Positions 1-20,107 are shown, numbered from the stretch's first letter. The stretch is DNA of 64,000 nt from Spirochaetia bacterium (GCA_965215345.1 CBDCDL010000002.1:2250605-2314604); one strand, 5' to 3'. The notes: generated by a model not told the origin, from the letters alone. Numbers and translations are program-made.

Positions 1-1561
1 TTCCGTGGACCTCCACCCGCGTCGGGTGCCAAACGATCAGATGGGACTCATCTTCGAGAACCTGATCCGCCGTTTCAACGAGCTGGCGAACGAGACTGCC
101 GGAGACCACTTCACGCCGCGCGAGGTGATCCGGCTCATGGTGAGCGTGCTGTTCATCCATGACGACGACCTGCTGGCCACGCCGGGCGTCGTGCGCAAGC
201 TGCTCGACCCGGCCTGCGGCACGGGCGGCATGCTGGCCGAGGCGCAGAGCTATCTGCGTGACCACCATCCGCAGGCCAGGCTCTACGTCTATGGGCAGGA
301 CTACAACAAGCGCGCCTACGCCACGGCCGCGTCCGACATGCTGATGAAGGAAGTGAGTCACAACGGCGGTGACGACGACAACGTACGCTTCGGCGACAGC
401 CTTACCGAGGACCGGTTCGAGGGAGAAACCTACGACTACTTCCTTACCAACCCCCCGTTCGGCGTCGACTGGAAGCGGCAGCAGAGCGAGGTCAAGCGCG
501 AGCACGCGCAGCGGGGCTTCGCCGGCCGCTTCGGCGCCGGACTGCCGCGCGTAAACGACGGATCGCTCCTGTTCCTGCAGCACATGGTGGCCAAGTTCGA
601 ACCCGTGCGCCCGGACGAGCACCGGCACGGCTCGCGGCTCGCCATCGTCTTCAGCGGCTCGCCGCTGTTCACGGGCGGCGCCGGCTCCGGTGAGAGCAAC
701 ATCCGGCGCTGGATCATCGAGAACGACTGGCTGGAAGCCATCATCGCGTTGCCGGAGCAGATGTTCTACAACACCGGCATCGGCACGTACGTGTGGATCG
801 TCACCAACCGCAAGGAGAAGCGGCGCCGCGGCAGAATTCAACTCGTCGATGCACGCGACCTGTGGACGCCAGGCGGCAGCGCGGAGAGCCGACGCAGCCT
901 CGGCGACAAGCGCCGCCACCTCGCCGACGATCAGATTGACGAGATCGTCCGGCTGTACGGTCGATTCGAGGACGAAGAGCGCTGCAAGAGCTTCCGCAAC
1001 AGCGACTTCGGGTATACTCGGGTCACCGTGGAGCGCCCCCTGCGCCTGCGCTATCAGATGACGCTGGACGCGATGGAGCGGTTCCTGGACGTCTGCCCCG
1101 AATTGCTCGACGACGTACAGGCCATCGACCAAGCTCTGGGTCGGGAACCTCAGGACGACTGGAACATCGTGTCGCAACGGATCGGCGCCCTGCTGCGCGA
1201 ACGCCGGTCACGCTGGAAGAAGCCCCAGCACAAGCTGTTCCGGGAGGCGTTCACCGCCAAGACTCCGCAGGCCGCGCCGGTCAGGAACGACCGCGGCGAC
1301 GGCTTCGAGCCCGACCCTGCGCTGCGCGACTTCGAGAACGTACCGCTCGCCGAGGACGTCGACGCCTACTTCGAGCGCGAGGTGCTCCCGCACGTCCCCG
1401 ACGCCTGTCTGGACCGCACCAGGGACAAGGTCGGGTACGAGATCAACTTCAACCGCCACTTCTACCGGTACACGCCGCCGCGACCGCTGGAGGAAATCGA
1501 CGCGGATCTGAAGCAGGCGGAAGAGAGGATCATCAGGTTGTTGCGAGAGGTCACCGCGTGA
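1..1561 (+). CDS. hsdM: Type I restriction-modification DNA methyltransferase subunit HsdM, 5'-truncated at the window edge
   Basis: The ORF runs in-frame from the window start. It has an N6-adenine MTase motif I (LLDPACGTGGML) and motif IV (LTNPPFGVDW). The C-terminal region is typical of HsdM and is followed by hsdS. Confidence 0.9.
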   Translation, partial: SVDLHPRRVPNDQMGLIFENLIRRFNELANETAGDHFTPREVIRLMVSVLFIHDDDLLATPGVVRKLLDPACGTGGMLAEAQSYLRDHHPQARLYVYGQDYNKRAYATAASDMLMKEVSHNGGDDDNVRFGDSLTEDRFEGETYDYFLTNPPFGVDWKRQQSEVKREHAQRGFAGRFGAGLPRVNDGSLLFLQHMVAKFEPVRPDEHRHGSRLAIVFSGSPLFTGGAGSGESNIRRWIIENDWLEAIIALPEQMFYNTGIGTYVWIVTNRKEKRRRGRIQLVDARDLWTPGGSAESRRSLGDKRRHLADDQIDEIVRLYGRFEDEERCKSFRNSDFGYTRVTVERPLRLRYQMTLDAMERFLDVCPELLDDVQAIDQALGREPQDDWNIVSQRIGALLRERRSRWKKPQHKLFREAFTAKTPQAAPVRNDRGDGFEPDPALRDFENVPLAEDVDAYFEREVLPHVPDACLDRTRDKVGYEINFNRHFYRYTPPRPLEEIDADLKQAEERIIRLLREVTA

Positions 1562-1621: not shown

Positions 1622-2062
1622 ATGAACCCGGAATCATTTCTCCGTCTGCGACTGGTCGGCGCGCGTTTCGAAGGACACTCCGTCCCGCTGACGTTCCTGA
1701 AGGACATCGGCGCACAGGTCGACGATCTGCGGCTGGTCGAGGACGGTTGGCTCGAAGGAGGGGGTAGAGCGCCAGCGGGGACGGGGCTCGACTGTCTGCT
1801 TGACGTCTTCGACCAGCACTATCCCGACGAGGCACCGCTGCCACATCTCTATCCGACCGAGACGGGAGGGGTTCAGGCCGAGTGGTCTCTGGGATCGCGC
1901 GAAATCACGCTCGAGGTGGATCTCGAGACTCATGACGGTGAATGGCACGTACTCGACATGCAGTCCGGAGATATGCAAGAGCGCGTGCTTGACTATGGCA
2001 GTGATGAGGCATGGAAGTGGCTGGTGGAGCAGATCCATGCGTGTGACCAGGACAGCCCATGA
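1622..2062 (+). CDS. Hypothetical small acidic protein (146 aa) located between hsdM and hsdS
   Basis: ATG start with a GAGGTGAG RBS 5 nt upstream. The composition is protein-like and GC3-rich. I recognise no motif. Confidence 0.5.
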   Translation: MNPESFLRLRLVGARFEGHSVPLTFLKDIGAQVDDLRLVEDGWLEGGGRAPAGTGLDCLLDVFDQHYPDEAPLPHLYPTETGGVQAEWSLGSREITLEVDLETHDGEWHVLDMQSGDMQERVLDYGSDEAWKWLVEQIHACDQDSP

Positions 2063-2207: not shown

Positions 2208-3620
2208 ATGAGCGCCGCGGAATCGCTATGTCCAGGTCGAGTCGTTCCTGGAGTCGCTGTGTCCGTCGATTACCAGCCGCGTGACTTCGTGAAGCGTCTC
2301 GGCTGGACTAACACACTTCCCGATGGATGGAAGCCTAAGCCACTGCGCGCCGCGGTGTACTGTGTAGTCAGCAACGTCGACAAAGTAAAGGTCGATGGAG
2401 AAAGCCCAGTACAGCTATGCAACTACACGGATGTCTACCACAATGAGTTCATTAGACCTGGATTGGACTTTATGCGAGCTACGGCATCACAAGCAGAAAT
2501 CGCACGCTTCGCGCTGTCCGTGGACGATGTTGTCATCACGAAAGATTCGGAAGCGTGGGATGACATCGGCGTACCTGCACTCGTCGTTGAAACATTGGCT
2601 GACTTGATATGCGGCTATCACTTGGCGTTGCTACGTCCACGCAAGGACGTCATTGATGGGGCTTTCCTGTTCCGATGTCTTCAGGCGAAGCCAATCCAAG
2701 TACAGTTGGCGTTGTCGGCAAACGGGGTTACTCGCTTTGGGCTACCGAAGTCCGCGATCGGGGCAGCAGTCGTGCCTGTGCCGCCGCTGGCTCGACAGCG
2801 CGCGATCGCCAAATATCTTAACCGTGAGACGGCGCGGCTAGATGCGCTGGTAGCGGAAAAGGAGCGGTTGCTGAGCCTGTTGGAGGACAAGCGCCGCGCG
2901 CTTGTGACGCGTTCCGTCCTGCGCGGAGCGGAGCCTCGCGTGACGCTGCGTGACTCCGGCATTCCACGGGCGGGGGAGATCCCGATCCATTGGCAGACGA
3001 GACGGCTACGGTTCCTCGTACACCGTATCGAACAGGGCTGGAGTCCGGAAGCTCACGATCGCATGCCAGCAGTCGATGAATGGGGTGTCTTGAAACTCAA
3101 TGCGGTCAACCGCGGACGTTTCGACGCAACCGCGACAAAGACACTTCCGCCCAATAGGGAACCTTCCGTATTATTCGAAGTAAGACCGGGCGACGTTCTC
3201 GTGACTCGTTCCAATACGCCATCCTTGGTCGGCGATGCATGCTACGTGGAAGCTACGCGGGCGAGATTGATTCTATCGGACCTCATTTACCGATTGACGG
3301 TGCGGTCTGAGTTGATTGACGGAAGATTTCTGGTGTACTTTCTGACGCTTCCGACCGGTAGAAGTCAGATTGAGCGAGATGCCCGTGGTACCAGTGCCTC
3401 CATGGTAAAGATTTCTCAGGAACACATCAGGAACTGGCGGGTGCCAGTACCACCCGTAGAAGAACAGCGGGAGATAGTCGCGGAGATTGTATCCACGACA
3501 ACGGTGATCGACCAGATTGAGACCGCTACGAATCGCTCCATCGCGCTCCTGAAAGAGCGCCGCTCCGCTCTGATCGCCGCCGCCGTGACGGGACAGATCG
3601 ACGTTGGTGGCGCAGCATGA
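2208..3620 (+). CDS. hsdS: Type I restriction-modification specificity subunit HsdS with two target-recognition domains
   Basis: N-terminal ...LPDGWKP... motif. Central and C-terminal conserved coiled-coil repeats (ARQRAIAKYL...LDALVAEKERLLSLLEDKRRAL; VEEQREIVAEIVSTTTVIDQIETATNRSIALLKERRSALIAAAVTGQI). GC is lower than in the flanking genes, as is typical for hsdS. The exact start is uncertain. Confidence 0.85.
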   Translation: MSAAESLCPGRVVPGVAVSVDYQPRDFVKRLGWTNTLPDGWKPKPLRAAVYCVVSNVDKVKVDGESPVQLCNYTDVYHNEFIRPGLDFMRATASQAEIARFALSVDDVVITKDSEAWDDIGVPALVVETLADLICGYHLALLRPRKDVIDGAFLFRCLQAKPIQVQLALSANGVTRFGLPKSAIGAAVVPVPPLARQRAIAKYLNRETARLDALVAEKERLLSLLEDKRRALVTRSVLRGAEPRVTLRDSGIPRAGEIPIHWQTRRLRFLVHRIEQGWSPEAHDRMPAVDEWGVLKLNAVNRGRFDATATKTLPPNREPSVLFEVRPGDVLVTRSNTPSLVGDACYVEATRARLILSDLIYRLTVRSELIDGRFLVYFLTLPTGRSQIERDARGTSASMVKISQEHIRNWRVPVPPVEEQREIVAEIVSTTTVIDQIETATNRSIALLKERRSALIAAAVTGQIDVGGAA

Positions 3621-4834
3621 GAGTCGCGCGCCTCAAACTCGCCAACGTTCGGTCGGTCAAGGCCGCCGAGTTCCATTTCCGTCCAGGCATCAACCTGATC
3701 GTGGGCGTGAACGGGGTCGGTAAGACGGGCGTACTCGACGCTCTGGGGGTGTGTCTGTCGTCCTTCATCAGAGACGCGTACGACCTTCGTACCGACGTCA
3801 AGAGATTCAGGCTTGACGACGTGCGTGTGGGATCGGCAGCGCTTTACGTCGAGTGCACGGTGCGGCACGGCGGGGCGAATTACGCCTGCGACGTGCACAA
3901 GAGGGTTGTGAGTTCCGGACACCAAGGTCCCGATACGCCACAGACTATCACGGGCGGAAGCCTGCATCCGCCGTCGCCAGCGGACCCGGGTGGAATGCCA
4001 CTCGCTGTGATCTTCTCTACGCGTCGGGCGCTCGCTTCTCGCAGGACTCCCTCGGAGACCGTCGCGGCCGGCGGAGTGGCCGCAGCATGCGCCGGAGCGT
4101 TCGCCAATCGAGATCTGCAGCTCAACGAGTTTGCGCAGTGGATGCGGGCGCGACAAACCCTTGCGGCGGAACGGCCGGCTGCCGGGGACGTCCTGACCAC
4201 GTTCGCGGAAACGGTGGCACGATTCCTTCCCGGCTATTCGAACTTCCGGGTCGACGGGGACAAGCGCCCGGAACTGCTGATCGATCATGGCGGCATGGCG
4301 CTCAAGGTGAGCCAGCTTTCAGACGGCGAACGCGGCATGCTGGCCATGGTACTCGACTTGACGCGCAGACTCGCCCAAGCCAATCCGGCCCTGACAGACC
4401 CCGGCGCCGAAGCGGAGGCGGTCGTTCTGATCGACGAGATCGACCTGCATCTGCACCCGCAATGGCAGCGGCAGATCGTGCGCAATCTGACAACAGCGTT
4501 CCCCCGCTGCCAGTTCATCGCCACGACCCATTCCCCTCAGATCATCGGCGAGGTCGAACACGACCGCATCCACATCATGGCCGACGGCGAGGTCTACTCA
4601 CCGACACACTCGTTCGGCGTCGACTCCAGTCGAGTTCTGGAAGAGGTCATGGAAGCGGATCCGCGGAATAGCGAGGTCAAGGACCTGCTTTCTCGAGCGT
4701 CTCGCTCGATCGACAGGGAGCGCTTCGAGGAGGCGCGAGAACTGTTGGGCAGACTCGATGATCGGCTTGGCGACGATGACCCCGATGTGACTGGGCTGCG
4801 GACCCTTCTCGCGTTCATGGAGGGCGGGGATTGA
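3617..4834 (+). CDS. ptuA: ABC-type (AAA_15/21-like) ATPase, Septu PtuA-like
   Basis: Walker A (GVNGVGKTG), ABC signature/Q-loop-like LSDGERGML, Walker B (VVLIDEIDLHLHP) and an H-loop region (IATTHSP). The ATGA start/stop overlaps hsdS. It is immediately followed by an HNH protein. Confidence 0.6.
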   Translation: MRVARLKLANVRSVKAAEFHFRPGINLIVGVNGVGKTGVLDALGVCLSSFIRDAYDLRTDVKRFRLDDVRVGSAALYVECTVRHGGANYACDVHKRVVSSGHQGPDTPQTITGGSLHPPSPADPGGMPLAVIFSTRRALASRRTPSETVAAGGVAAACAGAFANRDLQLNEFAQWMRARQTLAAERPAAGDVLTTFAETVARFLPGYSNFRVDGDKRPELLIDHGGMALKVSQLSDGERGMLAMVLDLTRRLAQANPALTDPGAEAEAVVLIDEIDLHLHPQWQRQIVRNLTTAFPRCQFIATTHSPQIIGEVEHDRIHIMADGEVYSPTHSFGVDSSRVLEEVMEADPRNSEVKDLLSRASRSIDRERFEEARELLGRLDDRLGDDDPDVTGLRTLLAFMEGGD

Positions 4835-5475
4835 GAGGCATCACGAAAGGTGCCGAACCGGCCAGCCTGACCACACATCGCCGGACTCCGCACGGCGACT
4901 ACGACAATTACCCCGACAAGGACACGCTTCGGGTCATGCTGGCGAACGAACAGCGGGGGCTGTGCTGCTACTGTATGGGGCGGATACGCAGTGACTCGAT
5001 GAAGGTCGAACACTGGAGATCCCAGAGTCGGTTTCCCAAAGAACAGCTCGACTACGGGAACCTTCTCGGCGCCTGCCGGGGAGGAGAAGGGCAGCCGCGA
5101 TCCTCGCAGCATTGCGACACGCGCAAAGGCGATAGCGATCTGCGGTGGAATCCCGCGAACCGGAGTCACGCGATCGAGGAGCGGATCTACTACGAGTCGG
5201 ATGGTGGCATCGGATCCGACGACGCGAATTTCAACGCACAGCTCGACGAAGTGCTCAATCTCAACCTACCGGTGTTGAAGAATAGCCGGAGACGGATCCG
5301 CGAAAGGGTCCTCGAGTGGTGGAAGATGGAGAAGGGACGCCTTCGAGGTCCGGTGCCGCGCGAGCGATTCGAAAAGCAGCGCGCGCGGCGGGTCGTCGGC
5401 GCCGGCGACCTGGAACCCTATTGCCAAGTCGCTGTCTGGTGGCTCGATCAGCGCCTGAAAAGGATGGCTGCGTGA
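4831..5475 (+). CDS. ptuB: HNH endonuclease-family protein, Septu PtuB-like
   Basis: The TTG start overlaps the ptuA stop (TTGA); an alternative ATG lies at 4933. The Cys/His motif (CCYCMG...VEHWRSQS...HCDTRKG) is consistent with a TIGR02646-type HNH. The stop overlaps the hsdR GTG start. Confidence 0.55.
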
Positions 5476-8400
5476 GCGATCACCGTCATTCGGAGTCCGC
5501 GTTCGAGACGGTGATCGAAGCGCACCTGCTGGCGAACGGATACGTCTCCGTGCTGGGCGAAGCGTTCGACCGGGAACGAGCGATCTTCCCGGATACCGTG
5601 CTCAGCTTCATCCGCGGGACGCAGCCGAAGGAATGGGCGAAGCTCGAAGCGCTGCTCGGGGCGCAGACCGACGAGCAGGTCCTGACCGATCTGTGCAAAT
5701 GGATGGACACTCACGGCGCTCTGGCGACGCTCCGGCACGGGTTCAAGTGCTACGGCAGGACTCTGCATGCTGCGTTCTTCAGGGCGGCGCACGCGTTGAA
5801 CCCGGAGCTGGACGCGCAGTACGCCGCCAACCGAGTCGGCATCACGCGGCAACTTCGCTTCTCGCCGCACTCGGAGCAATCGGTTGACGTGACGCTGAGC
5901 GTCAACGGGATACCGGTCGCAACGCTCGAGTTGAAGAACCCGCTCACAGGGCAGACGGTGGAAGACGCCCGCCGACAGTATCGCGAGGACCGCGACCCGC
6001 GCGTGCCTGTGTTCGCCTTCAAGCGGCGCACGCTCGTCCACTTCGCGGTGGACACCGAGTCGGTGCTCATGACGACGCGCCTCGCCGGCAACGCGACCCA
6101 CTTCCTTCCGTTCGACCGGGGATGCGACGGCGGCGCCGGCAATCCTCCCGATCCGAACGGGCGCAGCTATCGCACCTCGTACCTGTGGGAGGAGGTGCTG
6201 CAGCGCGACAGCCTGCTGGACCGCCTGGCGCGTTTCGTCCACGTGCAGGTGGACCAGAAGCGCGACGAGCGGGGACGCAAGATGAAGGTCGAGACGATGA
6301 TCTTCCCCCGCTACCACCAACTGGAAGCGGTGCGCCTCCTGGTGGCTGCCGCGCGCCGCGAAGGCGTCGGGCACAACGCCTTGGTCGAGCACTCCGCGGG
6401 CAGCGGCAAGAGCAACACCATCGCGTGGCTCACGCATCGCCTGGCTTCGCTGCACGACGCGGACAACGCCCGCGTGTTCGACAGCGTGATCGTGGCGACC
6501 GACCGCGTGGTGCTCGATCAGCAGCTTCAGGACACCATCTACCAGTTCGAGCACAAGCGCGGCGTCGTGCAGAAGATCGACGAGCGCTCGCGGCAGCTCG
6601 CGGAGGCGTTGGAGAGCGCGGTGCCGATCGTCATCACGACGCTGCAGAAGTTTCCCTACGTGTCTCGCCAGCTTCTCAGGATGGCCGAGGAACGGGGCAC
6701 GGAGGCGACGGGCGTGCTGCCGACCCGCCGCTGTGCCGTGATCATCGACGAAGCGCACAGCTCCCAGGGAGGCGAAACCGCGACCGCGCTCAAGGGGGTG
6801 CTGGGCGGCGAGGAGCTGCGCGCGGAAGCGCGGAAGCGCGCGGCCGAGGAGGGCCTGGAAGGCGAGCACGCCCAGGAGCTGTTTCTCGGTATGGCCAGGC
6901 GCGGCCGGCTCCCCAACCTGAGCTTCTTCGCCTTCACTGCGACGCCAAAGCACAAGACGTTCAAGGTCTTTGGGCGCGGAGGCATGCCCGTCCATCGCTA
7001 CACCATGCGCCAAGCGATCGACGAGGGGTTCATCCTCGACGTCCTGCGCCACTACACCAGCTACGTCACCTACTACAAGCTGCTCAAGGCGTGCGCGGAA
7101 GATCCCCACGTGGAGCGGAAGCCGGCAGCCAGGGCGCTCGCGCGCTTTCTGCGACTGCACCCGCACAACATCGCGCAGAAGACCGAGATCATGGTCGAGC
7201 ACTTCAACGCCGTCACCCGCCACAAGATCGGCGGCCGCGCCAAGGCGATGGTGGTGACCGGATCGCGACTGGAGGCGGTGCGCTACAAGCAGAGCTTCGA
7301 CCGCTACATCGAACGGAAGGGATATCCGATCAAGTCGCTGGTAGCCTTCTCGGGCGTGGTGGAAGACGACGATGTCGCCGGCGTGACCTACACTGAGGAG
7401 CAGATGAACGACGGCGTGCGCGAGAAGGAGTTGCCGGAGCACTTCGCCACGCCCGAATATCAGGTCCTGCTGGTGGCAGAGAAGTACCAGACGGGTTTCG
7501 ATCAGCCGCTGCTGCACACGATGTACGTCGACAAGCGGCTTGCCGGCATCCAGGCGGTGCAGACCCTCTCCCGGCTCAACCGGACGCACGCGCTCAAGGA
7601 AGACACCTTCGTGCTCGACTTCGTCAACGACCGCGACGAGATCCGCGAAGCCTTCGAGACGTACTACGAAGGCGCCGCGATGGGCGCCGAGGTCGACCCC
7701 GCGCGGATGTACGAGATCAAGGGCGAGCTCGATGCGTCCGGCGTGTATCGCGCCGAGGAAGTCGAGCGCTTCTGCGCCGTGTACTTCAACCCCAGGCAGC
7801 GCCAGAGCGCACAGGATCATCAAGCGATGAACGCCGCGTTGGATCCGGCGGTGTCTCGCTTTGCCGAGTTCCTCAAGGAGGAGGAAACGGAGGCCGAGGT
7901 CTGGCGCGGCAAGCTGCACGCATTTCGCAACCTCTACGGGTTCCTGAGTCAGGTGATTCCCTACCAGGACTCCGACCTTGAACGGCTCTACGTCTTTCTC
8001 CGTCACCTTGGCGCAAAGCTGCCGCGGCGCCGCTCGCGGCCGGCCTACGACTTCGACGACGACGTGCGCCTGGAGTACTACCGCCTGCAGAAGATCAGCG
8101 AAGGCTCGATCGCGCTCGGCTCGGGTGACGCGCGCGCCCTGGATGGGCCGACCGAGGTCGGCAGCGGCGTTGCCCATGAGGAGTCGGTCCCGCTGTCCAG
8201 GCTCATCGATGTCGTCAACGACCGCTTCGGTACGGATTTCAACGACGCCGACCAACTCTTCTTCGAACAGATCGTCGAGGCCGCGGTAGCCGACGACGAG
8301 CTGCGTCAGACCGCGGCTGTCAATCCCGAAACGAAGTTCGAGCTGGTGTTCAAGAGCCTGATCGAGCGTCTGTTCGTAGAGCGCATGGACCAGAACGAGG

Positions 8401-9041
8401 AGATCTTCGTCCGCTACATGAACGATCCATCCTTCAAGGAAGTCGTGAGCGAGTGGCTGTCCTCGCAGGCGTACCAGCGGCTCCGGGACGCCGACCAGAG
8501 CGATGAGGAGCCGGAGGCCGAGGGCTTGCGAATCGTCGCAGGCCGGCTCGAAGACCGCTACGTCACCTGCGTGCCTCTGGTACCTCTTGCCGTGGCTGCG
8601 GGCGCGTTCGGCGATCCCCAGACCGTGCCGGACGAAGGCGAATGGGAATGGGTGGAAGTAGACACCGCGCGCCGGCTCCGCCCCGGCATGTTCGTCGCGC
8701 AGGTCACCGGCCGCTCCATGGAGCCTATGGTCCCTGACGGAGCGTATGCGTTGTTCCGCTCACCGGTGGAAGGCACGCGGCAGGGCAAGACCGTGCTGGT
8801 TGAGATGCGTGGCGCCATCGACCCGGAAACCGGCGAGCGTCACACGCTCAAGCGATACGAAAGCGAGCGAGTCGCCGCCGGCGATTCATGGCGGCATGAG
8901 AAGATCACCCTGAAACCGATGAATCCCGAATTTGATCCCATCGTCATCACCGGCGAGGAAGAAGGAGACCTGACCGTCGTGGCGGAGTTGGTCGAAGTAC
9001 TTCTCGTGCCCTCCGTTTCAGACGTGGCTGTTCAACCGTGA
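5472..9041 (+). CDS. hsdR: Type I restriction enzyme R subunit HsdR with a C-terminal LexA-like S24 peptidase domain fusion
   Basis: The GTG at 5472 overlaps the ptuB stop. The long in-frame ATG at 5316 was rejected because it overlaps ptuB. The N-terminus is HsdR-like (HFLPFDRGC...[13 protein letters not shown]). It has an SF2 helicase core and the conserved HsdR C-terminal helical domain. A further ~150 aa then resemble the LexA/UmuD C-domain (see findings). Confidence 0.85.
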
Positions 9042-9086: not shown

Positions 9087-10784
9087 GTGCTGTTGAGTAG
9101 AGCAAGGGTGCGCAATTTCCGTTGTATCAAGGACCTTAGCGTTGACCTTGAGGACATGACGGTACTCATCGGTGAGAACAATACCGGCAAGACCGCGTTT
9201 CTCGACGCTGTTCGCATCTGTCTCAGCCAGCTTCGACCGCGGAGTGGCCGCCTGTTTCATGAATATGATTACCACCTGGGGGACGATGAGGCGACTCCAG
9301 CCGGCGCGGAACCCATAGTGATCGAGCTGTTCTTCGTAGAGCCCCAGCCCGAATCGTGGAGCGACGACATCGTCCGGGAGCTGGGCAACGTCGCGGTGCT
9401 CGGCGAGGATGATCGCTATGCCGTCACGTTTCGCCTCACTTCCGGCTTCGATCGGGATACCAACGACTTCAGTAGCGAATGGGCGTTCCTGGATGCTCAG
9501 CGGAACCCGCTCATCGGACCGGCGTCGTCTGCTGCGCAGCTCAATGCGTTGCAGCGGGTGGCTCCCGTGTTCTATCTCTCTGCGCTGCGAGATACGACCA
9601 CGCACTTTGCGCCTCGCGGACGGTTCTGGCGTAACTTCCTCTCGGAATCGAGTATCCCGGAACATGACCGACAACATCTTGAGCAGGCATTCTCCGAACT
9701 GAACGATCGACTCATCGCGGCACATCAGCCGCTCAAGGAAGTGCGTTCGAGACTCGAAGACGCGAAAAGAGTAATCGACTTCGGAACGGGTGACGCGGTG
9801 GGCATAGACGCGCTGCCCACCAAGCTGTTCTCGTTGCTGTCTCGCACGCAGGTCAGTCTGGCATCGCCCGCGGGCGCCAAGATCCCGGTAGATCGCCAAG
9901 GTGAGGGAACGCAGAGTCTGGCGGTCCTGCTCTTGTTCGGAGCGTTTCTGCGAAGCCAGCTATCGGATCTCGACTCGATTGCACAGCCGATTACTGCATT
10001 GGAAGAGCCGGAGGCCCATCTGCATCCGTCGGCGGTTCGCGCTCTGATGCAGGTCGTCAGGGATCTGCCGGGGCAAAAGCTCGTGTCCAGCCATAGTGGA
10101 GACCTTCTGGCAAGCGTGGACCCGCTGTCGGTGCGGCGCTTCGTCCGCCGTAGCGGCGGTATCGACGTTCACCACATTCAGCGCAATGCACTGGACGCTG
10201 AGGAGCTGAGGAAGTTCGACTTCCACGTACGCCGCAGCCGCGGGGAATTGCTGTTCGCGAGATGCTGGCTTATGGTTGAAGGGGAGACGGAGACCGTCCT
10301 GTTCGCCGGCGCGGCGGAGGCGCTCGATATGGATCTGGAGCGCTCTGGAGTTCGCACCGTGGAGTTCGGTCAAACGGATGTCGCGATGCTCGCGAAGGTC
10401 GCCAACGAGCTTGGAGTCCCGTGGTACTGTGTCGTCGACGACGATAGTGGGGCACGCACGTACGGCAACGCCGTGCGTGCGCAGCTCGGCGCCGCGACGG
10501 AAGGTGATCGCTTGACCCTTCCATACGAGAACGTGGAGATCTTTCTTTGCGAGCATGGGTTCGGAGATCTTTACGAGTCTCGTGTCTCGCAACAAAAGCC
10601 GGCACCGACTGCGCGAAATGGTACGCCAGAGTATTGGAGACAGGTGCTGGCTGCTATGCCTAATCGCTACAGCAAGCCGGCGATCGCTGTGGAGGCCGTG
10701 TTGACGATGAAGGCCGGCGAGATCCCGGTGCCAGAGACCCTGAAGAGGATCCTCGAAAAGGCTGTGGAACTGGGTAGCGAGTGA
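9087..10784 (+). CDS. gajA: OLD-family ATPase plus TOPRIM nuclease, Gabija GajA-like
   Basis: N-terminal ABC-type ATPase (RVRNFRCIKDLSVDL...LIGENNTGKTAFLDAV; EEPEAHLHPS). C-terminal TOPRIM with the acidic motifs (WLMVEGETE; CVVDDDSG). A UvrD-like helicase gene overlaps its stop. Confidence 0.7.
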   Translation: MLLSRARVRNFRCIKDLSVDLEDMTVLIGENNTGKTAFLDAVRICLSQLRPRSGRLFHEYDYHLGDDEATPAGAEPIVIELFFVEPQPESWSDDIVRELGNVAVLGEDDRYAVTFRLTSGFDRDTNDFSSEWAFLDAQRNPLIGPASSAAQLNALQRVAPVFYLSALRDTTTHFAPRGRFWRNFLSESSIPEHDRQHLEQAFSELNDRLIAAHQPLKEVRSRLEDAKRVIDFGTGDAVGIDALPTKLFSLLSRTQVSLASPAGAKIPVDRQGEGTQSLAVLLLFGAFLRSQLSDLDSIAQPITALEEPEAHLHPSAVRALMQVVRDLPGQKLVSSHSGDLLASVDPLSVRRFVRRSGGIDVHHIQRNALDAEELRKFDFHVRRSRGELLFARCWLMVEGETETVLFAGAAEALDMDLERSGVRTVEFGQTDVAMLAKVANELGVPWYCVVDDDSGARTYGNAVRAQLGAATEGDRLTLPYENVEIFLCEHGFGDLYESRVSQQKPAPTARNGTPEYWRQVLAAMPNRYSKPAIAVEAVLTMKAGEIPVPETLKRILEKAVELGSE

Positions 10785-12703
10785 CGATGCATGATACGGG
10801 CGCCATGAACGCGAACCAGAAGCGGGCGGTGGAGTGGAACGACGGACCGCTTCTGGTGCTGGCGGGTCCGGGATCGGGAAAGACGTTCGTTCTTACCATG
10901 CGTGTGGCGCGTCTGATCCGTGAGAACCCCGAAGCTCGGTTTCGCGTGCTGGGGCTCACGTTCACGACGAAGGCCGCGGACGAGATGCGCAGCCGTCTGG
11001 AAATGGTCTTGGGCGACGAGACAAGGAGAGCGCGTCTGACCACGTTTCATTCGTTCTGTGCCGAGGTGCTGCGCCAACACGGAAGTCATCTGGGACTGCG
11101 CCCCGACTTTGACATACTCGCTCGAGAAGCCGACCGCCTCCGCGTACTCGATGACGCTATCCACGGCAACAGTTCGTTGGACATGCCTGATGTTCCCGCC
11201 GATAGCGTTGTGCGAATGATCGATTACCTGTTCCGCGAAGGGCATGACGGGAACGCCGACACTCCTCTTCCTTTCTCGGGCTCCCCAAAGAAATGGATGG
11301 GTGCGGTCTACAGGACGTACCTGGACGCTCTGATTCGCAACAATCATCTGGACTACGGCGCACTGCTGGTTTCCTGCTTGCGCCTGTTTCGACAACGCCC
11401 CCGGATCGCCAAGCATTACCGCATAGTCTATCCTTACATCTGCGTCGATGAATACCAAGACACGAACAGGTGTCAGGATCGTCTGCTCCGGTTTCTCTGC
11501 CCGAGCGGCGACGCGAACCTCTTCGTCGTCGCCGATGACGATCAGATAATCTTCCAGTGGAATGGCGCCAGTCCCGCGCGTCTCGACGAGCTCCGCCGTG
11601 ATTACAGGATGCATGTCATCCAACTGCCGGACAGTTACCGGTGTCCTCCGGAAGTGATCGAGCTGGCGAACAGGCTCATTCGGTTCAACCTCGAACGATC
11701 GGCGATCAAGGAGCCGCTGAGATCGGCGGTCCCGGCGGGACGGGCCGATTCGATTCGCGTGCGGCGATTTCCTGATCAGTTGGCAGAGATGGCATGGATC
11801 GCCGACGACATGCGGTGTCGCGAACTGCGGCCCACTGAATGCGTGGTGCTGGGGCGCAGCGCAAAGCTCGTCGAGTCGGCCGCGGCGGCGTTGAGACATG
11901 CGCATTTCGTTCCGTACGTGATCAAGCGCAGGCAGGATTTCTACTCGCCCCCGCTGCGTTTCGTACAAGCGGCTCTGAGGCTCGCAATCGCACCACAGCA
12001 GAGCGACCAGATGCGGATCATGTGCAAGGCGTTCTTCGATCTGACGGGGGTCGACGTGCGGGTGGAAGATGCAGAGGCGGAAGGCGAAGCGTATGGCGGG
12101 GCGCTGCTAAGGGGTTTCCTGGAGGCGACGGAAGGAGTTTCCGCCGTAGTGATGGAGTCCGCGCCGCTGCTTGAAGCGCTGCATGACAAACTCGTAGAAC
12201 GGTTGGAGTACGGTGGATTCGTGGACGCGGTCTTCGAATGGTACCATGATCGTGTTCGGCCAAACGAGGTGAGCACGGAGCAACGTGATCTGGATGATGC
12301 TGAAGAGGAGATCGGTATCTGGAACGAGTTGAATCGGGACGTGTGTCGTCACGTTGGCGCGCCGACGTTGAGTCGATTCCTGCAGGAGATGGACCTTCGG
12401 CCGAAGGTGACTCCGCCGGGGCGGGACGCAATTCAGTGTTTGACGATTCACCTGGCGAAGGGAAAGGAATTCGAGCACGTCTACCTGGTAGGAATGGCGG
12501 AGGATCATCTGCCGTCGTATCACGCGAGACGGAAGGGTGCCAATAGTCGCGCGATCGAAGAGGAACGTCGAGAGTGCTTCGTCGGCATTACGCGCGCGCA
12601 CACCAGTCTGACACTCACCTACTCGGCATCTTACTTCGGCTGGCCCAAGGAACCATCGCGGTTCTTGAGCGAGATGGGGTTGGTCTCGATGGAGGCGCGC
12701 TGA
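10781..12703 (+). CDS. gajB: UvrD/PcrA-like superfamily 1 helicase, Gabija GajB-like
   Basis: ...NANQKRAVEWNDGPLLVLAGPGSGKT (Walker A) ...DEYQDTN... (motif II). The GTG start overlaps the gajA stop; an alternative ATG lies at 10805. Confidence 0.7.
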   Translation: MTMHDTGAMNANQKRAVEWNDGPLLVLAGPGSGKTFVLTMRVARLIRENPEARFRVLGLTFTTKAADEMRSRLEMVLGDETRRARLTTFHSFCAEVLRQHGSHLGLRPDFDILAREADRLRVLDDAIHGNSSLDMPDVPADSVVRMIDYLFREGHDGNADTPLPFSGSPKKWMGAVYRTYLDALIRNNHLDYGALLVSCLRLFRQRPRIAKHYRIVYPYICVDEYQDTNRCQDRLLRFLCPSGDANLFVVADDDQIIFQWNGASPARLDELRRDYRMHVIQLPDSYRCPPEVIELANRLIRFNLERSAIKEPLRSAVPAGRADSIRVRRFPDQLAEMAWIADDMRCRELRPTECVVLGRSAKLVESAAAALRHAHFVPYVIKRRQDFYSPPLRFVQAALRLAIAPQQSDQMRIMCKAFFDLTGVDVRVEDAEAEGEAYGGALLRGFLEATEGVSAVVMESAPLLEALHDKLVERLEYGGFVDAVFEWYHDRVRPNEVSTEQRDLDDAEEEIGIWNELNRDVCRHVGAPTLSRFLQEMDLRPKVTPPGRDAIQCLTIHLAKGKEFEHVYLVGMAEDHLPSYHARRKGANSRAIEEERRECFVGITRAHTSLTLTYSASYFGWPKEPSRFLSEMGLVSMEAR

Positions 12704-18002: not shown

Positions 18003-20107
18003 GTTAGCCCAAGTTTAACGGGCTGAAACATATCCTGCTACGGGTGCATAAATTAGAAGGTCTCATATCGGCGGGTGGCACTACATTCGCTGCGCAACTG
18101 GTGAGCATCGCTACTCTGCGACCACCGTCCTGATCCCACCGGGGGCCGGATCAGCTCCCAACGCATCGTAGATCGCACGCTGGTCTGGCTCGGCCTCGGT
18201 CGCCTTGCGCACGTGCAGGGTGCGACCGTCAGCACGGCGAAAGGTGGCCGTGACGCGCTGCTGGCCGGCGAGGATGCTGCGCACCGTGCGCCATGAGGCG
18301 TGCTCGCCGTGCTCGCGCAAGCGGCGTCGGATCACCTGCACCAACTGATAGGCCAGCACGGTAATGAACAGATGACCATTGGCGCGATCCGGCTTCTGGT
18401 GGAAGATCGGCCGCAGCCCCAGCTCGGACTTCAGGGATCGAAACACCGCCTCCAGATCGGTCAGCGTGATGTAGGTACGCCACATCGTCTCGGCATCCCA
18501 GTCGGTCTGGTTGCTGCGCAGGCAGTACACCCCCGGATGGGTCAGCTTCGAACCGGCAACCGGGCGTTGTTCCCACTTGATGGCGGTGGCCTTCTCGCCG
18601 CTCTTATCGGTAACCACCTCGATATGGTAATGCTGAGCCGCACCGCTGCTGTTGGTCTTCAGGCGCCCGATGCGCTGCCAGATCCTTTCGGTCTTCTTGT
18701 GCGTCCGCGGCCGAGACAGTCCTTCGTGCAGCTCCTGCAGGTGCTTCTCGAAGCGCTCGGTAGCCCGTTTCAGCATCGCCTGCTCCTTGCCGTGCCGAGC
18801 CTCCGAGTAGCAGTACAGGCGCACTTCGGCGCCGTCCTCCGACCGCACCATCTGCACCTGTATCTCCTGCCGTGAGGCCGTCTGCAGGCGCAGCGCCGCC
18901 TCGGCATCAAATCTTCGGGTGCGCTCGCGACTCACCGCCAAATACCGGTATCCCTGCTCCCGCAGCCATTGCAGATTCTTCTCGGTGGCCGCCCCGCAAT
19001 CCATCACGAGCAGCGCGTGGTCAGGCACCTGCAGGCGCTTGAGCACCCCTTGCAGGACATCCTGTTCGACGACATTGCCAGCCAATACCTCGCTGCGACG
19101 CACGAACCCGCTGCCGTCCAGCACCAGACCCAAGGTCAGCAGCGGACAATCGCTGCGCTTCTCCTTGGAATGACCGCGCTGGGCCAGCGGCTGATCTGCC
19201 GCCTCCCCCTCGAAATAGGAGTTGGTCAGGTCATATAACGTGACAGTCGTTCCCAGGCAGAACAGATCCGTCACTTGCTTGAACAGATGCTGTTCGATCG
19301 CCTGTTGCTGGCCGACCAGCGCGTCGGAGGCGCGGTACAACTGCATCATGCTCATGGTCTCGAAGTCCACCTGCAGCAGTTCGCCCAAGGCGCTGCACTG
19401 CTGCAACCAGCGATAGGTGGCCCGTTCGGAGCCGGGCGCGGCCATGCGGGCGATGATGGAGCCGACCGCCGCAGCGCGCTGCGGGCCGCTCAGACCCAAC
19501 CTGTTGAGCAACGGGATCAACTGCACCTGCTGCATGGCCCATAGGCCGACCTGTTCGACGCCGACGCTGCGTGGCCGCAGCAGTTGCAGAGAAGCGACGT
19601 CGACGCTGTGGAACTCGCTTTCGCCAGCGCTGTCCTCTGGAGAGGAGGCCGCGTGCAGCGGTACTTGACGGGCGATCAACTGCGCGGCGATCCGTTGTGC
19701 TTCCCGCTCGATGGGCGGGCGAATATCGGTGGACAGCAGCGCATCTTGGGGGCTTAGCAGTTGCTTGATGCGCGAGCACAGCAGCGGCCAATCGGCGTGA
19801 GGAAGCGAGAAGTGGCGGCCGAGATTGAGCAGAGTGCGCTGCCGGACGTGGGCGCCGCGGCGTTCAGAACGCACCAAGCGATAGGTAAAGTAGCGGTCGC
19901 CGTTGGCGGTGGCTCGGGTCTGAGTGCGGCGCACGAACATGGCTGACTGAAGGTAGATAGCCGGCAAGAGGCGGTCAATGGCCTCGCTGACTATTATGGC
20001 ACTACTTCGGCCGATCAGCCCATTTTGGAGGCAGAGCCCCCCATAGATTCGCGGAAATCACTCCAACTTCCTGAAATCGCCTGCGCGAGTGTTAAACTTG
20101 GGTTAGC
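18003..20107 (-). mobile_element. IS1634/IS4-family insertion sequence (~2.1 kb) with imperfect terminal inverted repeats
   Basis: Single 618-aa DDE transposase ORF (18111..19967). Terminal IRs GTTAGCCCAAGTTTAAC (18003-18019) and GTTAAACTTGGGTTAGC (20091-20107, reverse complement GCTAACCCAAGTTTAAC), matching 15 of 17 positions. The ends are lower-GC. Confidence 0.75.
18111..19967 (-). CDS. IS1634-family transposase
   Basis: 618 aa; the typical IS1634/IS4 DDE transposase length and sequence pattern (…YFEGE…, …SDCPLLTLGLVLD…). Confidence 0.75.
   Translation of the reverse strand: MPAIYLQSAMFVRRTQTRATANGDRYFTYRLVRSERRGAHVRQRTLLNLGRHFSLPHADWPLLCSRIKQLLSPQDALLSTDIRPPIEREAQRIAAQLIARQVPLHAASSPEDSAGESEFHSVDVASLQLLRPRSVGVEQVGLWAMQQVQLIPLLNRLGLSGPQRAAAVGSIIARMAAPGSERATYRWLQQCSALGELLQVDFETMSMMQLYRASDALVGQQQAIEQHLFKQVTDLFCLGTTVTLYDLTNSYFEGEAADQPLAQRGHSKEKRSDCPLLTLGLVLDGSGFVRRSEVLAGNVVEQDVLQGVLKRLQVPDHALLVMDCGAATEKNLQWLREQGYRYLAVSRERTRRFDAEAALRLQTASRQEIQVQMVRSEDGAEVRLYCYSEARHGKEQAMLKRATERFEKHLQELHEGLSRPRTHKKTERIWQRIGRLKTNSSGAAQHYHIEVVTDKSGEKATAIKWEQRPVAGSKLTHPGVYCLRSNQTDWDAETMWRTYITLTDLEAVFRSLKSELGLRPIFHQKPDRANGHLFITVLAYQLVQVIRRRLREHGEHASWRTVRSILAGQQRVTATFRRADGRTLHVRKATEAEPDQRAIYDALGADPAPGGIRTVVAE

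Follow-up and report, generated by a model that had tools for sequence, protein, structure and literature searches.

The question raised by the stretch analysed here, 64,000 nucleotides of a Spirochaetia bacterium (GCA_965215345.1, CBDCDL010000002.1:2250605-2314604; hereafter the window), is whether a Septu-like gene pair, ptuA and ptuB, which occupies the hsdS/hsdR interval of a type I restriction–modification (R-M) operon, has been caught there by accident or belongs to that operon, and what the two defence systems may do for each other. An earlier note on this DNA described the ATPase/HNH pair as spliced into the R-M operon and took the overlapping gene junctions as a sign of coupled, stoichiometric expression and of possible functional cross-talk. 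Our analysis showed that the locus is no isolated insertion but belongs to a conserved composite operon of type I R-M and Septu.

The ORF (open reading frame) list confirmed that hsdM, orf146, hsdS, ptuA, ptuB and hsdR follow each other in this order on the plus strand, every feature lying where the note had put it, and direct reading of the sequence bore out the ATGA, TTGA and GTGA stop/start overlaps at the three junctions of the Septu pair (Table 1). The starts of ptuA, ptuB and hsdR are each preceded, at a spacing of 6–7 nt, by a Shine–Dalgarno-like motif located within the 3′-end of the upstream gene. Neither direct nor inverted repeats were found in the flanks of the 3617–5475 segment, and the G+C profile has no step at the ptuAB borders. 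A consensus scan of the junctions detected no promoter-like or convincing terminator-like site and gave fewer matches than shuffled controls, a result that is uninformative for a G+C-rich genome.

PtuA aligned with residues 1–402 to positions 1–415 of the 421-position PADLOC PtuA model PDLC00271 (372 bits, E = 1e-111), and almost all the other PADLOC matches among those listed were also PtuA models. Its Pfam matches were AAA_21 (74 bits), AAA_15 (68 bits) and SMC_N, and its best sequence match in the PDB was PtuA of the Escherichia coli Septu system (8EE4, E = 5.8e-37, 131 bits). PtuB matched the PADLOC PtuB model PDLC00322 over its full length (234 bits), scored above the cut-off of TIGR02646 (54.8 vs. 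52.15 bits) and had the E. coli Septu PtuB, 8EE7, as its best PDB sequence match (E = 1.2e-5). The AlphaFold2 (AF2) models, made from homologue alignments and having moderate confidence (predicted local distance difference test scores, pLDDT, of 67 for PtuA and 74 for PtuB), were compared with the PDB by Foldseek: the top 50 matches of PtuA (E down to 8e-20) were all PtuA chains and the top 8 of PtuB were all PtuB chains, derived from Septu and retron type I-A complexes. Hence the assignment of the pair to Septu-type PtuA/PtuB, as made in the earlier note, is supported by profile hidden Markov models, by the nearest solved structures and by the predicted folds.

The motifs that the note had listed were all found, namely Walker A (GVNGVGKT), the signature LSDGERG and the DEIDLHLHP block of Walker B (LIDEIDLHLHP) in PtuA, and the CxxC/H/H HNH core in PtuB, the motif residues of which are CCYC (45–48), EH (60–61), N77 and HC (94–95). 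At least 95% of 78 PtuA homologues share G30, N32, G33, G35 and K36 of Walker A, S235, G237, E238 and R239 of the signature, D273 and E274 of Walker B, as well as H278, H280 and H305, while K6, C45–C48, E60–H61, N77, C82 and H94–C95–D96 are conserved to at least the same level in 76 PtuB homologues. Both enzymes are thus subject to constraint and are predicted to be catalytically intact.

Several other identities were considered and rejected. The PARIS AriA or RloA–RloB type was ruled out by the PDB search, in which AriA reached 33 bits vs. 131 bits for PtuA, and by the partner, which is an HNH protein and not a TOPRIM/DUF4435 one; AbiEii and OLD were excluded as the ATPase family by their scores and by the same HNH partner. 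Thus, the ATPase did not prove to be one of the RloB/AbiEii or AriA-type proteins against which the note had warned. The mad2, mad3 and mad5 equivalogs of MADS scored 51, 21 and 44 bits vs. cut-offs of 720, 420 and 400, respectively. A retron effector was ruled out since there is no reverse transcriptase gene by ptuAB, no reverse transcriptase domain in the operon proteins according to Pfam and no Rfam match in the window; the NCBIfam retron equivalogs also remained below their cut-offs (219 vs. 500 for PtuA and 88 vs. 150 for PtuB).

Judged by their full-length PADLOC matches, the proteins as such are already catalogued as Septu. Like Septu type I (E. coli ATCC 25922, 8EE4/8EE7/8EEA; E. coli B88), the pair is encoded as ptuA followed by ptuB and consists of an ABC-type ATPase and a TIGR02646 HNH nuclease. 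However, the window PtuA is only ~24–26% identical to the solved PtuA, has 405 amino acids instead of 465, and its middle part (~63–203) does not align by sequence, so the pair is a diverged Septu branch. It also differs from Septu type I in that it resides inside an hsd operon, without intergenic space, and is not autonomous.

For the PtuA-side survey, an alignment of PtuA homologues was searched against one genome per GTDB species, and the best 80 of 291 loci, with PtuA 43–62% identical to that of the window, were analysed by searching their ORFs with the window proteins; the total sample comprised about 90 places in genomes and metagenomes (PtuA 33–62% identical). This sample extends over ~20 phyla and includes one archaeal (Methanothrix) bin; among the best 80 loci Pseudomonadota, Acidobacteriota, Planctomycetota, Chloroflexota, Gemmatimonadota, Spirochaetota, Bacteroidota, Deinococcota, Nitrospirota, Myxococcota, Armatimonadota and several candidate phyla are represented. 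The order hsdM–hsdS–ptuA–ptuB–(...)–hsdR was seen in essentially all sufficiently long loci of the best 80, with ptuB directly 3′ of ptuA wherever the contig allows, and throughout the ~90 places hsdS was immediately 5′ of ptuA wherever the flank was readable, apart from a few degraded or ambiguous junctions. In the survey for the hsdS–ptuAB–hsdR arrangement that the note had proposed, the same order thus recurred across the related loci. The 4-bp overlaps were also kept: they were found in 52 of 76 loci between hsdM and hsdS, 64 of 78 between hsdS and ptuA, 71 of 77 between ptuA and ptuB (ATGA in 42, GTGA in 22 and TTGA in 7), and 35 of the 61 loci with hsdR found between ptuB and hsdR. Since both the order and the overlaps persist in the relatives, the overlaps seen in the window are more than chance.

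The architecture holds for more distant relatives as well. Plasmid pYP1 of Ketogulonicigenium vulgare, whose PtuA and HsdM are 38.6% and 67.5% identical to those of the window, has the same order, annotated in RefSeq as an "AAA family ATPase" and a "retron system putative HNH endonuclease" between a "restriction endonuclease subunit S" and a "type I restriction endonuclease". Four metagenome loci with more distant PtuA (L087, L091, L092 and L095) also show this order, and so do all five contexts examined for the L091-type PtuA sub-lineage (33–36% identical), including Marinobacter salarius and Defluviicoccus. The PtuA sub-lineages are 32–42% identical to each other and 26–34% identical to the three non-R-M PtuA outgroups, making a single origin of the R-M-embedded PtuA plausible. 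As the arrangement is common down to ~33% PtuA identity, it represents an old, inherited architecture and not an insertion event; a recent insertion of ptuAB was ruled out by this finding (33–62% PtuA identity) together with the missing flanking repeats and G+C step, and the term "spliced into" used in the note has to be abandoned on the same grounds. The note's proposal of coupled co-expression stands as far as a tight, co-directional array with coupled-looking junctions is concerned, while stoichiometry does not follow from 4-bp overlaps.

Some minor observations were made at these loci. In L008 (7281–10004) and L050 (1183–3843) a single ORF runs through hsdM and hsdS up to the ptuA overlap, which may be a natural M–S fusion. 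In a near-identical metagenome contig (L001, 3429–4066) ptuB is split into two ORFs and is absent from the public gene calls; consequently, automated neighbourhood surveys may under-count ptuB in this lineage. The module of M. salarius sits on an integrase-bearing island.

The association was also viewed from the R-M side, using an HsdM-seeded metagenome scan and plasmid records over a range of HsdM identity. Among the informative metagenome loci with HsdM 67–76% identical to that of the window, three carry ptuA (L086, L087 and L089), and one (L088, 74%) has HEC-01A instead. At 52–55% HsdM identity ptuAB was found in L091, L092 and L095 and was absent from L163 (53%), and at 51% or below the metagenome loci had no ptuAB, being either plain hsdMSR operons or carriers of other cassettes, such as PD-Lambda-5 and PDC-S05/S34. 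All four plasmid records with HsdM above 60% carry ptuAB and all are from K. vulgare, while PtuA of this clade was adjacent in none of the 823 plasmid records with HsdM below 60%; Rhodococcus pLW3, with 50% HsdM identity, contains a plain hsdMSR operon. L088, L163, pLW3 and the 823 plasmid records rule out that ptuAB is obligatory for the R-M lineage. On the PtuA side, all readable contexts among the ~90 sampled were type I operons, to which the clade is therefore near-exclusive. The association is thus one-sided: the PtuAB clade was found only in this type I R-M family, and the R-M family does not need PtuAB.

Comparison of the proteins across loci showed that PtuAB has kept company with the R-M genes to about the same degree as ptuA with ptuB, while evolving faster. 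The mean pairwise identities were 0.74 for HsdM, 0.76 for HsdR, 0.55 for PtuA, 0.56 for PtuB and 0.32 for HsdS, the most variable protein of the module. Mantel correlations of divergence were 0.50 for PtuA–HsdM, 0.62 for PtuB–HsdR, 0.55 for PtuA–PtuB and 0.73 for HsdM–HsdR, none of 300 permutations reaching the observed value in any of the four comparisons; the correlation between PtuA and HsdS was weak (r = 0.17). A close relative, assembled from three independent metagenomes (L168–L170, at ~5.5–13.7 kb in each), revealed that the module can be mosaic: compared with the window, HsdM is 91%, HsdR 82% and PtuB 81% identical, PtuA 54% and HsdS 32%. In these assemblies hsdS was called at 267 amino acids and aligns from residue 123 of the window HsdS; hsdS and ptuA may have been swapped as a unit. 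Their hsdR is interrupted by a frameshift near residue 504, and residues 606–762 (~157 amino acids) are missing from it, while hsdM, ptuA and ptuB are intact. PtuAB can therefore be kept without a working HsdR, which argues against its dependence on this subunit.

The host operon has the signature genes of a type I system, that is, an N6-adenine methyltransferase (HsdM), an HsdS with two target-recognition domains and an HsdR with a PD-(D/E)xK nuclease and a superfamily 2 (SF2) motor, as identified by Pfam and PADLOC. HsdM matched Pfam N6_Mtase (178 bits) and positions 145–660 of the 661-position PADLOC model MTase_I PDLC03029 (669 bits). The NCBIfam cut-offs were not reached, either by HsdM (TIGR00497, 68 vs. 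242.75 bits, with the copy cut by the window edge) or by HsdR (TIGR00348, 195 vs. 284.55), and the R-M system is a divergent type I family, to which the Prokaryotic Genome Annotation Pipeline (PGAP) gives the names "class I SAM-dependent DNA methyltransferase" and "type I restriction endonuclease". The nuclease motif of HsdR (D139...E153-x-K155) is kept by 97% or more of the aligned homologues, so restriction is self-sufficient, and the idea that PtuB replaces a dead HsdR nuclease was ruled out.

The genes hsdM–hsdS–ptuA–ptuB form the stable block of the composite operon, which varies mainly at the slot between ptuB and hsdR. In 26 loci the distance between ptuB and hsdR was 17–3800 bp, many of them containing further known or candidate defence cassettes: IetAS, an M78-peptidase/DUF4411 pair, PDC-S02 (YhcG nuclease), a DUF4365–tetratricopeptide repeat (TPR) protein, and Gabija or a GajB-like helicase. 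In 19 loci hsdR was not found within reach; some of these contigs stop short, and in eight the gene is absent from 9 kb of sequence downstream. Exceptions to this pattern are L092, with a cassette between hsdS and ptuA, and a few loci, the window included, with one between hsdM and hsdS. In L088 (3497–4714) the hsdS/hsdR slot is filled by an HEC-01A ABC ATPase (PADLOC, 538 bits) in place of ptuAB, so that one ABC-ATPase effector seems able to substitute for another at this site.

Embedding of defence systems within one another has already been described and named (10.1101/2024.01.29.577857). According to the same work (Payne et al., 10.1101/2024.01.29.577857), Hma is a common host of nested Septu, genes embedded in BREX, DISARM and type I R-M often share the orientation of their host, and PrrC occurs "almost exclusively" within type I R-M. 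The gap between hsdS and hsdR houses DarTG2 in enteropathogenic E. coli (EPEC; PMC12255303) and TgvAB on Vibrio pathogenicity island 2 (VPI-2) of V. cholerae (PMC11411939), and cassettes embedded in type I R-M can act on their own, as TgvAB (PMC11411939) and BrxU (10.1101/2024.01.29.577857) do. PrrC and PARIS have been termed "R-M guardian systems" (PMC12707154). Full-text searches of the literature returned general work on embedding and no description of a Septu lineage as a fixed type I R-M partner, and the accessible part of the supplementary files of Payne et al. has no "septu" entry.

PrrC (EcoprrI) resembles the window pair in its setting: it is an ABC-ATPase nuclease effector whose gene lies, in the same orientation, in the hsdS/hsdR interval, its context is near-exclusive, and its R-M host is independent of it. 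In contrast to the separate ATPase and HNH nuclease of the window, PrrC consists of one polypeptide that carries an anticodon-nuclease domain at its C-terminus, and no PrrC model was among the top PADLOC matches of the window proteins; moreover, PrrC has been shown to be masked by its R-M enzyme and set free by an anti-restriction peptide, while for the window pair such control is a hypothesis. The Hma-embedded Septu of Payne et al. is likewise a PtuAB pair nested, in the same orientation, in a defence system based on DNA modification, but its host is Hma (helicase, DUF1156 methylase and ATPase) and not type I R-M. With 31.5% identity over 78% of the query, PtuA of such a system on Rhizobium rhizogenes pC6.5e belongs to the two closest among the plasmid PtuA relatives from other contexts that align over most of their length. 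Retrons of type I-A (Septu type II; Eco7/Ec78 and Eco4/Ec83) possess a homologous PtuA/PtuB effector arm, which serves another module that keeps it latent (PMC12673091) and which ranked high among the fold matches, but their PtuA is ~550 amino acids long, with a coiled-coil insert. DarTG2 and TgvAB share the type I operon slot, the orientation and the proposal of layered defence, but they belong to other effector families and were described in particular strains, not as a phylum-spanning fixed partner.

Published work on PtuAB indicates what the pair might do. Septu of an E. coli clinical strain cuts tRNA-Tyr in its variable loop, and defence requires the Walker A/B motifs of PtuA and the HNH motif of PtuB (PMC13096335), while Septu of E. 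coli ATCC 25922 was reported, as summarised in PMC12673091, to be a DNase inhibited by ATP. In retron Eco7 PtuAB is inactive on the complex of reverse transcriptase and multicopy single-stranded DNA (RT-msDNA), and cutting of msDNA by a phage nuclease is the first step to its release (PMC12673091). Septu type I, Gabija and PrrC are described as sensors of ATP depletion that the ATPase Tmn can fire (PMC13001434).

The reading that we put first, giving it about an even chance, is that PtuAB would be a co-transcribed and co-inherited second-line nuclease, tied to the R-M system by expression, inheritance and layered function, with no physical control by Hsd proteins being assumed. A single transcript would start from an hsd promoter upstream of hsdM, as the gene spacing suggests, and translation of ptuA and ptuB would depend on coupling or re-initiation where the genes overlap by 4 bp. 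With no intergenic space of its own and with coupled translation, Septu would accompany any expression of the methyltransferase genes and would be inherited with them. By homology and predicted fold, PtuA and PtuB would assemble into an ATP-bound latent complex like the solved Septu. Type I restriction would attack unmethylated invading DNA first; if a phage escaped or overwhelmed it, PtuAB would be de-repressed, for example by a fall in ATP, and its HNH nuclease would cut tRNA-Tyr or nick DNA, leading to abortive infection, as the published Septu and retron PtuAB work suggests. This is supported by the classification of the pair as Septu, the anatomy of the junctions, the conserved gene order, the correlated divergence of PtuAB and the R-M proteins, the retained nuclease motif of HsdR, the conserved catalytic residues of PtuA and PtuB and the existence of R-M relatives without ptuAB. 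Several points weigh against it: the single transcript is deduced from gene spacing, the substrate (tRNA or DNA) varies among the characterised PtuAB systems, and the AF2 models have the moderate confidence given above. Furthermore, an autonomous layer should also occur in other contexts, as standalone Septu does, and none was seen among the ~90 places, which hints at a dependence on R-M beyond shared transcription.

In another reading, HsdM2S1 would hold PtuAB inactive by physical association, in the manner of PrrC, until a phage anti-restriction protein, such as Ocr, ArdA or a Stp-like one, disabled or distorted that complex, the R-M enzyme being the sensor and Septu the effector. We regard this as possible and clearly less probable than a second layer without physical control. 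In its favour is the PrrC-like asymmetry, with the PtuA clade found only in type I R-M and the R-M family also occurring without PtuAB, although this exclusivity could merely reflect overlapping genes that have no promoter of their own. The position between hsdS and hsdR is that of prrC, PtuAB stays beside hsdMS with the extra cassettes mostly on the hsdR side of ptuB, and its survival next to an hsdR pseudogene and an intact hsdM fits restraint by M/S and not by R; on the other hand, L092 has its cassette between hsdS and ptuA, and the divergence of PtuA correlates weakly with that of HsdS. L088 carries a different ABC ATPase, HEC-01A, in the same slot. The masking of PtuAB by RT-msDNA in retron Eco7 (PMC12673091) provides a precedent, while E. 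coli Septu functions without any R-M partner (PMC13096335). In general terms, the type I complex could tentatively be seen as a sensor for a Septu effector that is fired by anti-restriction proteins or, less likely, by an ATP drain through HsdR. The latter would amount to a relay in which HsdR translocation on unmethylated DNA lowers ATP and so de-represses PtuA and GajA of the neighbouring Gabija system, in parallel to Tmn. The ATP sensing of Septu type I, Gabija and PrrC and their firing by an upstream ATPase (PMC13001434) favour such a relay, as does the co-directional array of type I motor, Septu and Gabija, the last of which recurs by hsdM or ptuB in relatives. Nevertheless, it is very improbable in view of the intact ptuAB beside the broken hsdR of L168–L170 and of the eight loci without a detectable hsdR in 9 kb of downstream sequence. 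Also, the type I complexes of a cell are few and unlikely to collapse its ATP pool, which counts against a relay of this kind.

It is also improbable, if somewhat less so than the ATP relay, that PtuAB is a selfish passenger which gains linkage and expression without any combined benefit for the host, its conservation being due to linkage only. Payne et al. discussed this possibility and the idea of a "genomic sink" (10.1101/2024.01.29.577857), and the same slot does take many unrelated cassettes. However, the catalytic residues of both proteins are conserved over ~77 diverged homologues and the linkage persists to ~33% PtuA identity across ~20 phyla, whereas neutral passengers would be expected to decay or vanish. 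Least credible of all is an integral role in restriction, in which PtuB would cleave DNA for the R-M lineage with PtuA as a clamp: only the tight operon structure speaks for it, and it is contradicted by the conserved PD-(D/E)xK residues of HsdR and by close and sister R-M operons without ptuAB. Cross-talk between R-M and PtuAB remains a plausible hypothesis, and the one-way exclusivity fits the suggestion of the earlier note that PtuAB could be licensed by HsdMS or act as a backup.

While the components and the principle of embedding are known, the phylum-spanning fixation of PtuAB beside hsdS and its one-sided dependence on an R-M family are apparently new. Septu is widespread, its natural trigger is debated and its substrate (DNA or tRNA-Tyr) differs between studies; a large lineage found only in translational linkage to hsdS within a type I operon is a natural system to ask whether an R-M enzyme senses or regulates Septu, as EcoprrI does with PrrC, and cultured carriers exist (M. 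salarius, K. vulgare with pYP1, Geothrix rubra and Adhaeretor mobilis). A fixed partner is thereby set apart from the interchangeable cassettes of the neighbouring slot, which refines "guilt-by-embedding". If the type I complex did act as sensor, the hsdS/hsdR slot would be a docking site for interchangeable ATP-sensing ABC-ATPase effectors (PrrC, PtuAB, HEC-01 and Gabija), Septu would gain a defined natural trigger and the recurrence of such effectors in type I operons would be explained. If the coupling is co-expression only, the operon illustrates layered defence neatly but in an unremarkable way.

Table 1. Features of the composite operon and its neighbourhood (positions counted from the first nucleotide of the window)
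Feature	Position	Strand	Remarks
hsdM	5..1561	+	type I methyltransferase subunit; N-terminus beyond the window edge
orf146	1622..2062	+	PADLOC PDC-M32A, 141 bits, profile positions 258–371 of 376 only
hsdS	2208..3620	+	specificity subunit; PADLOC Specificity_I, 314 bits, and full-length matches; Pfam Methylase_S
Shine–Dalgarno-like motif of ptuA	3606–3610		GGTGG, within the hsdS 3′-end
hsdS/ptuA junction	3617..3620	+	ATGA stop/start overlap
ptuA	3617..4834	+	Septu ABC-type ATPase, 405 amino acids; PADLOC, Pfam, PDB, Foldseek
Shine–Dalgarno-like motif of ptuB	4819–4824		GGAGGG, within the ptuA 3′-end
ptuA/ptuB junction	4831..4834	+	TTGA stop/start overlap
ptuB	4831..5475	+	Septu HNH nuclease of the TIGR02646 family, 214 amino acids, TTG start
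Shine–Dalgarno-like motif of hsdR	5460–5464		AAGGA, within the ptuB 3′-end
ptuB/hsdR junction	5472..5475	+	GTGA stop/start overlap
hsdR	5472..9041	+	restriction/translocase subunit, 1189 amino acids, GTG start; Pfam HSDR_N, SWI2_SNF2, ResIII, T1R_D3-like
Peptidase_S24/LexA-like domain of HsdR	8592–8987		residues 1041–1172; Pfam, 30.2 bits
gajA	9087–10784	+	PADLOC GajA, 650 bits
gajB	10781–12703	+	PADLOC GajB, 768 bits; 4-bp overlap with gajA
DDE transposase	18111–19967	-	618 amino acids; Pfam DDE_Tnp_1

Two further features of the R-M genes deserve mention. The orf146 product, for which no Pfam family match was found, looks like a truncated remnant (the C-terminal third of PDC-M32A) of another embedded candidate defence gene, homologues of 372–393 amino acids being present in the same hsdM/hsdS slot at the related loci L073 and L080; a 145-nt non-coding stretch follows it. 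The Peptidase_S24/LexA-like domain at the C-terminus of HsdR is present in 32 of 61 related HsdR proteins, and the context of its Ser/Lys dyad (G-x-S1082-M-E-P and K1127-R-Y) is at least 90% conserved, so this domain could serve as a self-cleaving or RecA-responsive switch for restriction alleviation.

A complete Gabija system starts 45 nt 3′ of hsdR; it is adjacent to the conserved core and not part of it, and the three systems R-M, Septu and Gabija may together make up a single array of ~12.7 kb. Elsewhere Gabija directly follows hsdM (L162) or occupies the slot after ptuB (L070), and in L168–L170 an hsdM fragment precedes gajA. The G+C content is 0.54–0.68 in the defence array, being lowest in hsdS, and exceeds 0.70 from ~13 kb in host genes (a GNAT acetyltransferase and others), a contrast that fits horizontal acquisition of the array. 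The right edge of the island lies at ~12.7–12.85 kb and the left edge beyond the window, while the DDE transposase gene is located ~5 kb past the island.

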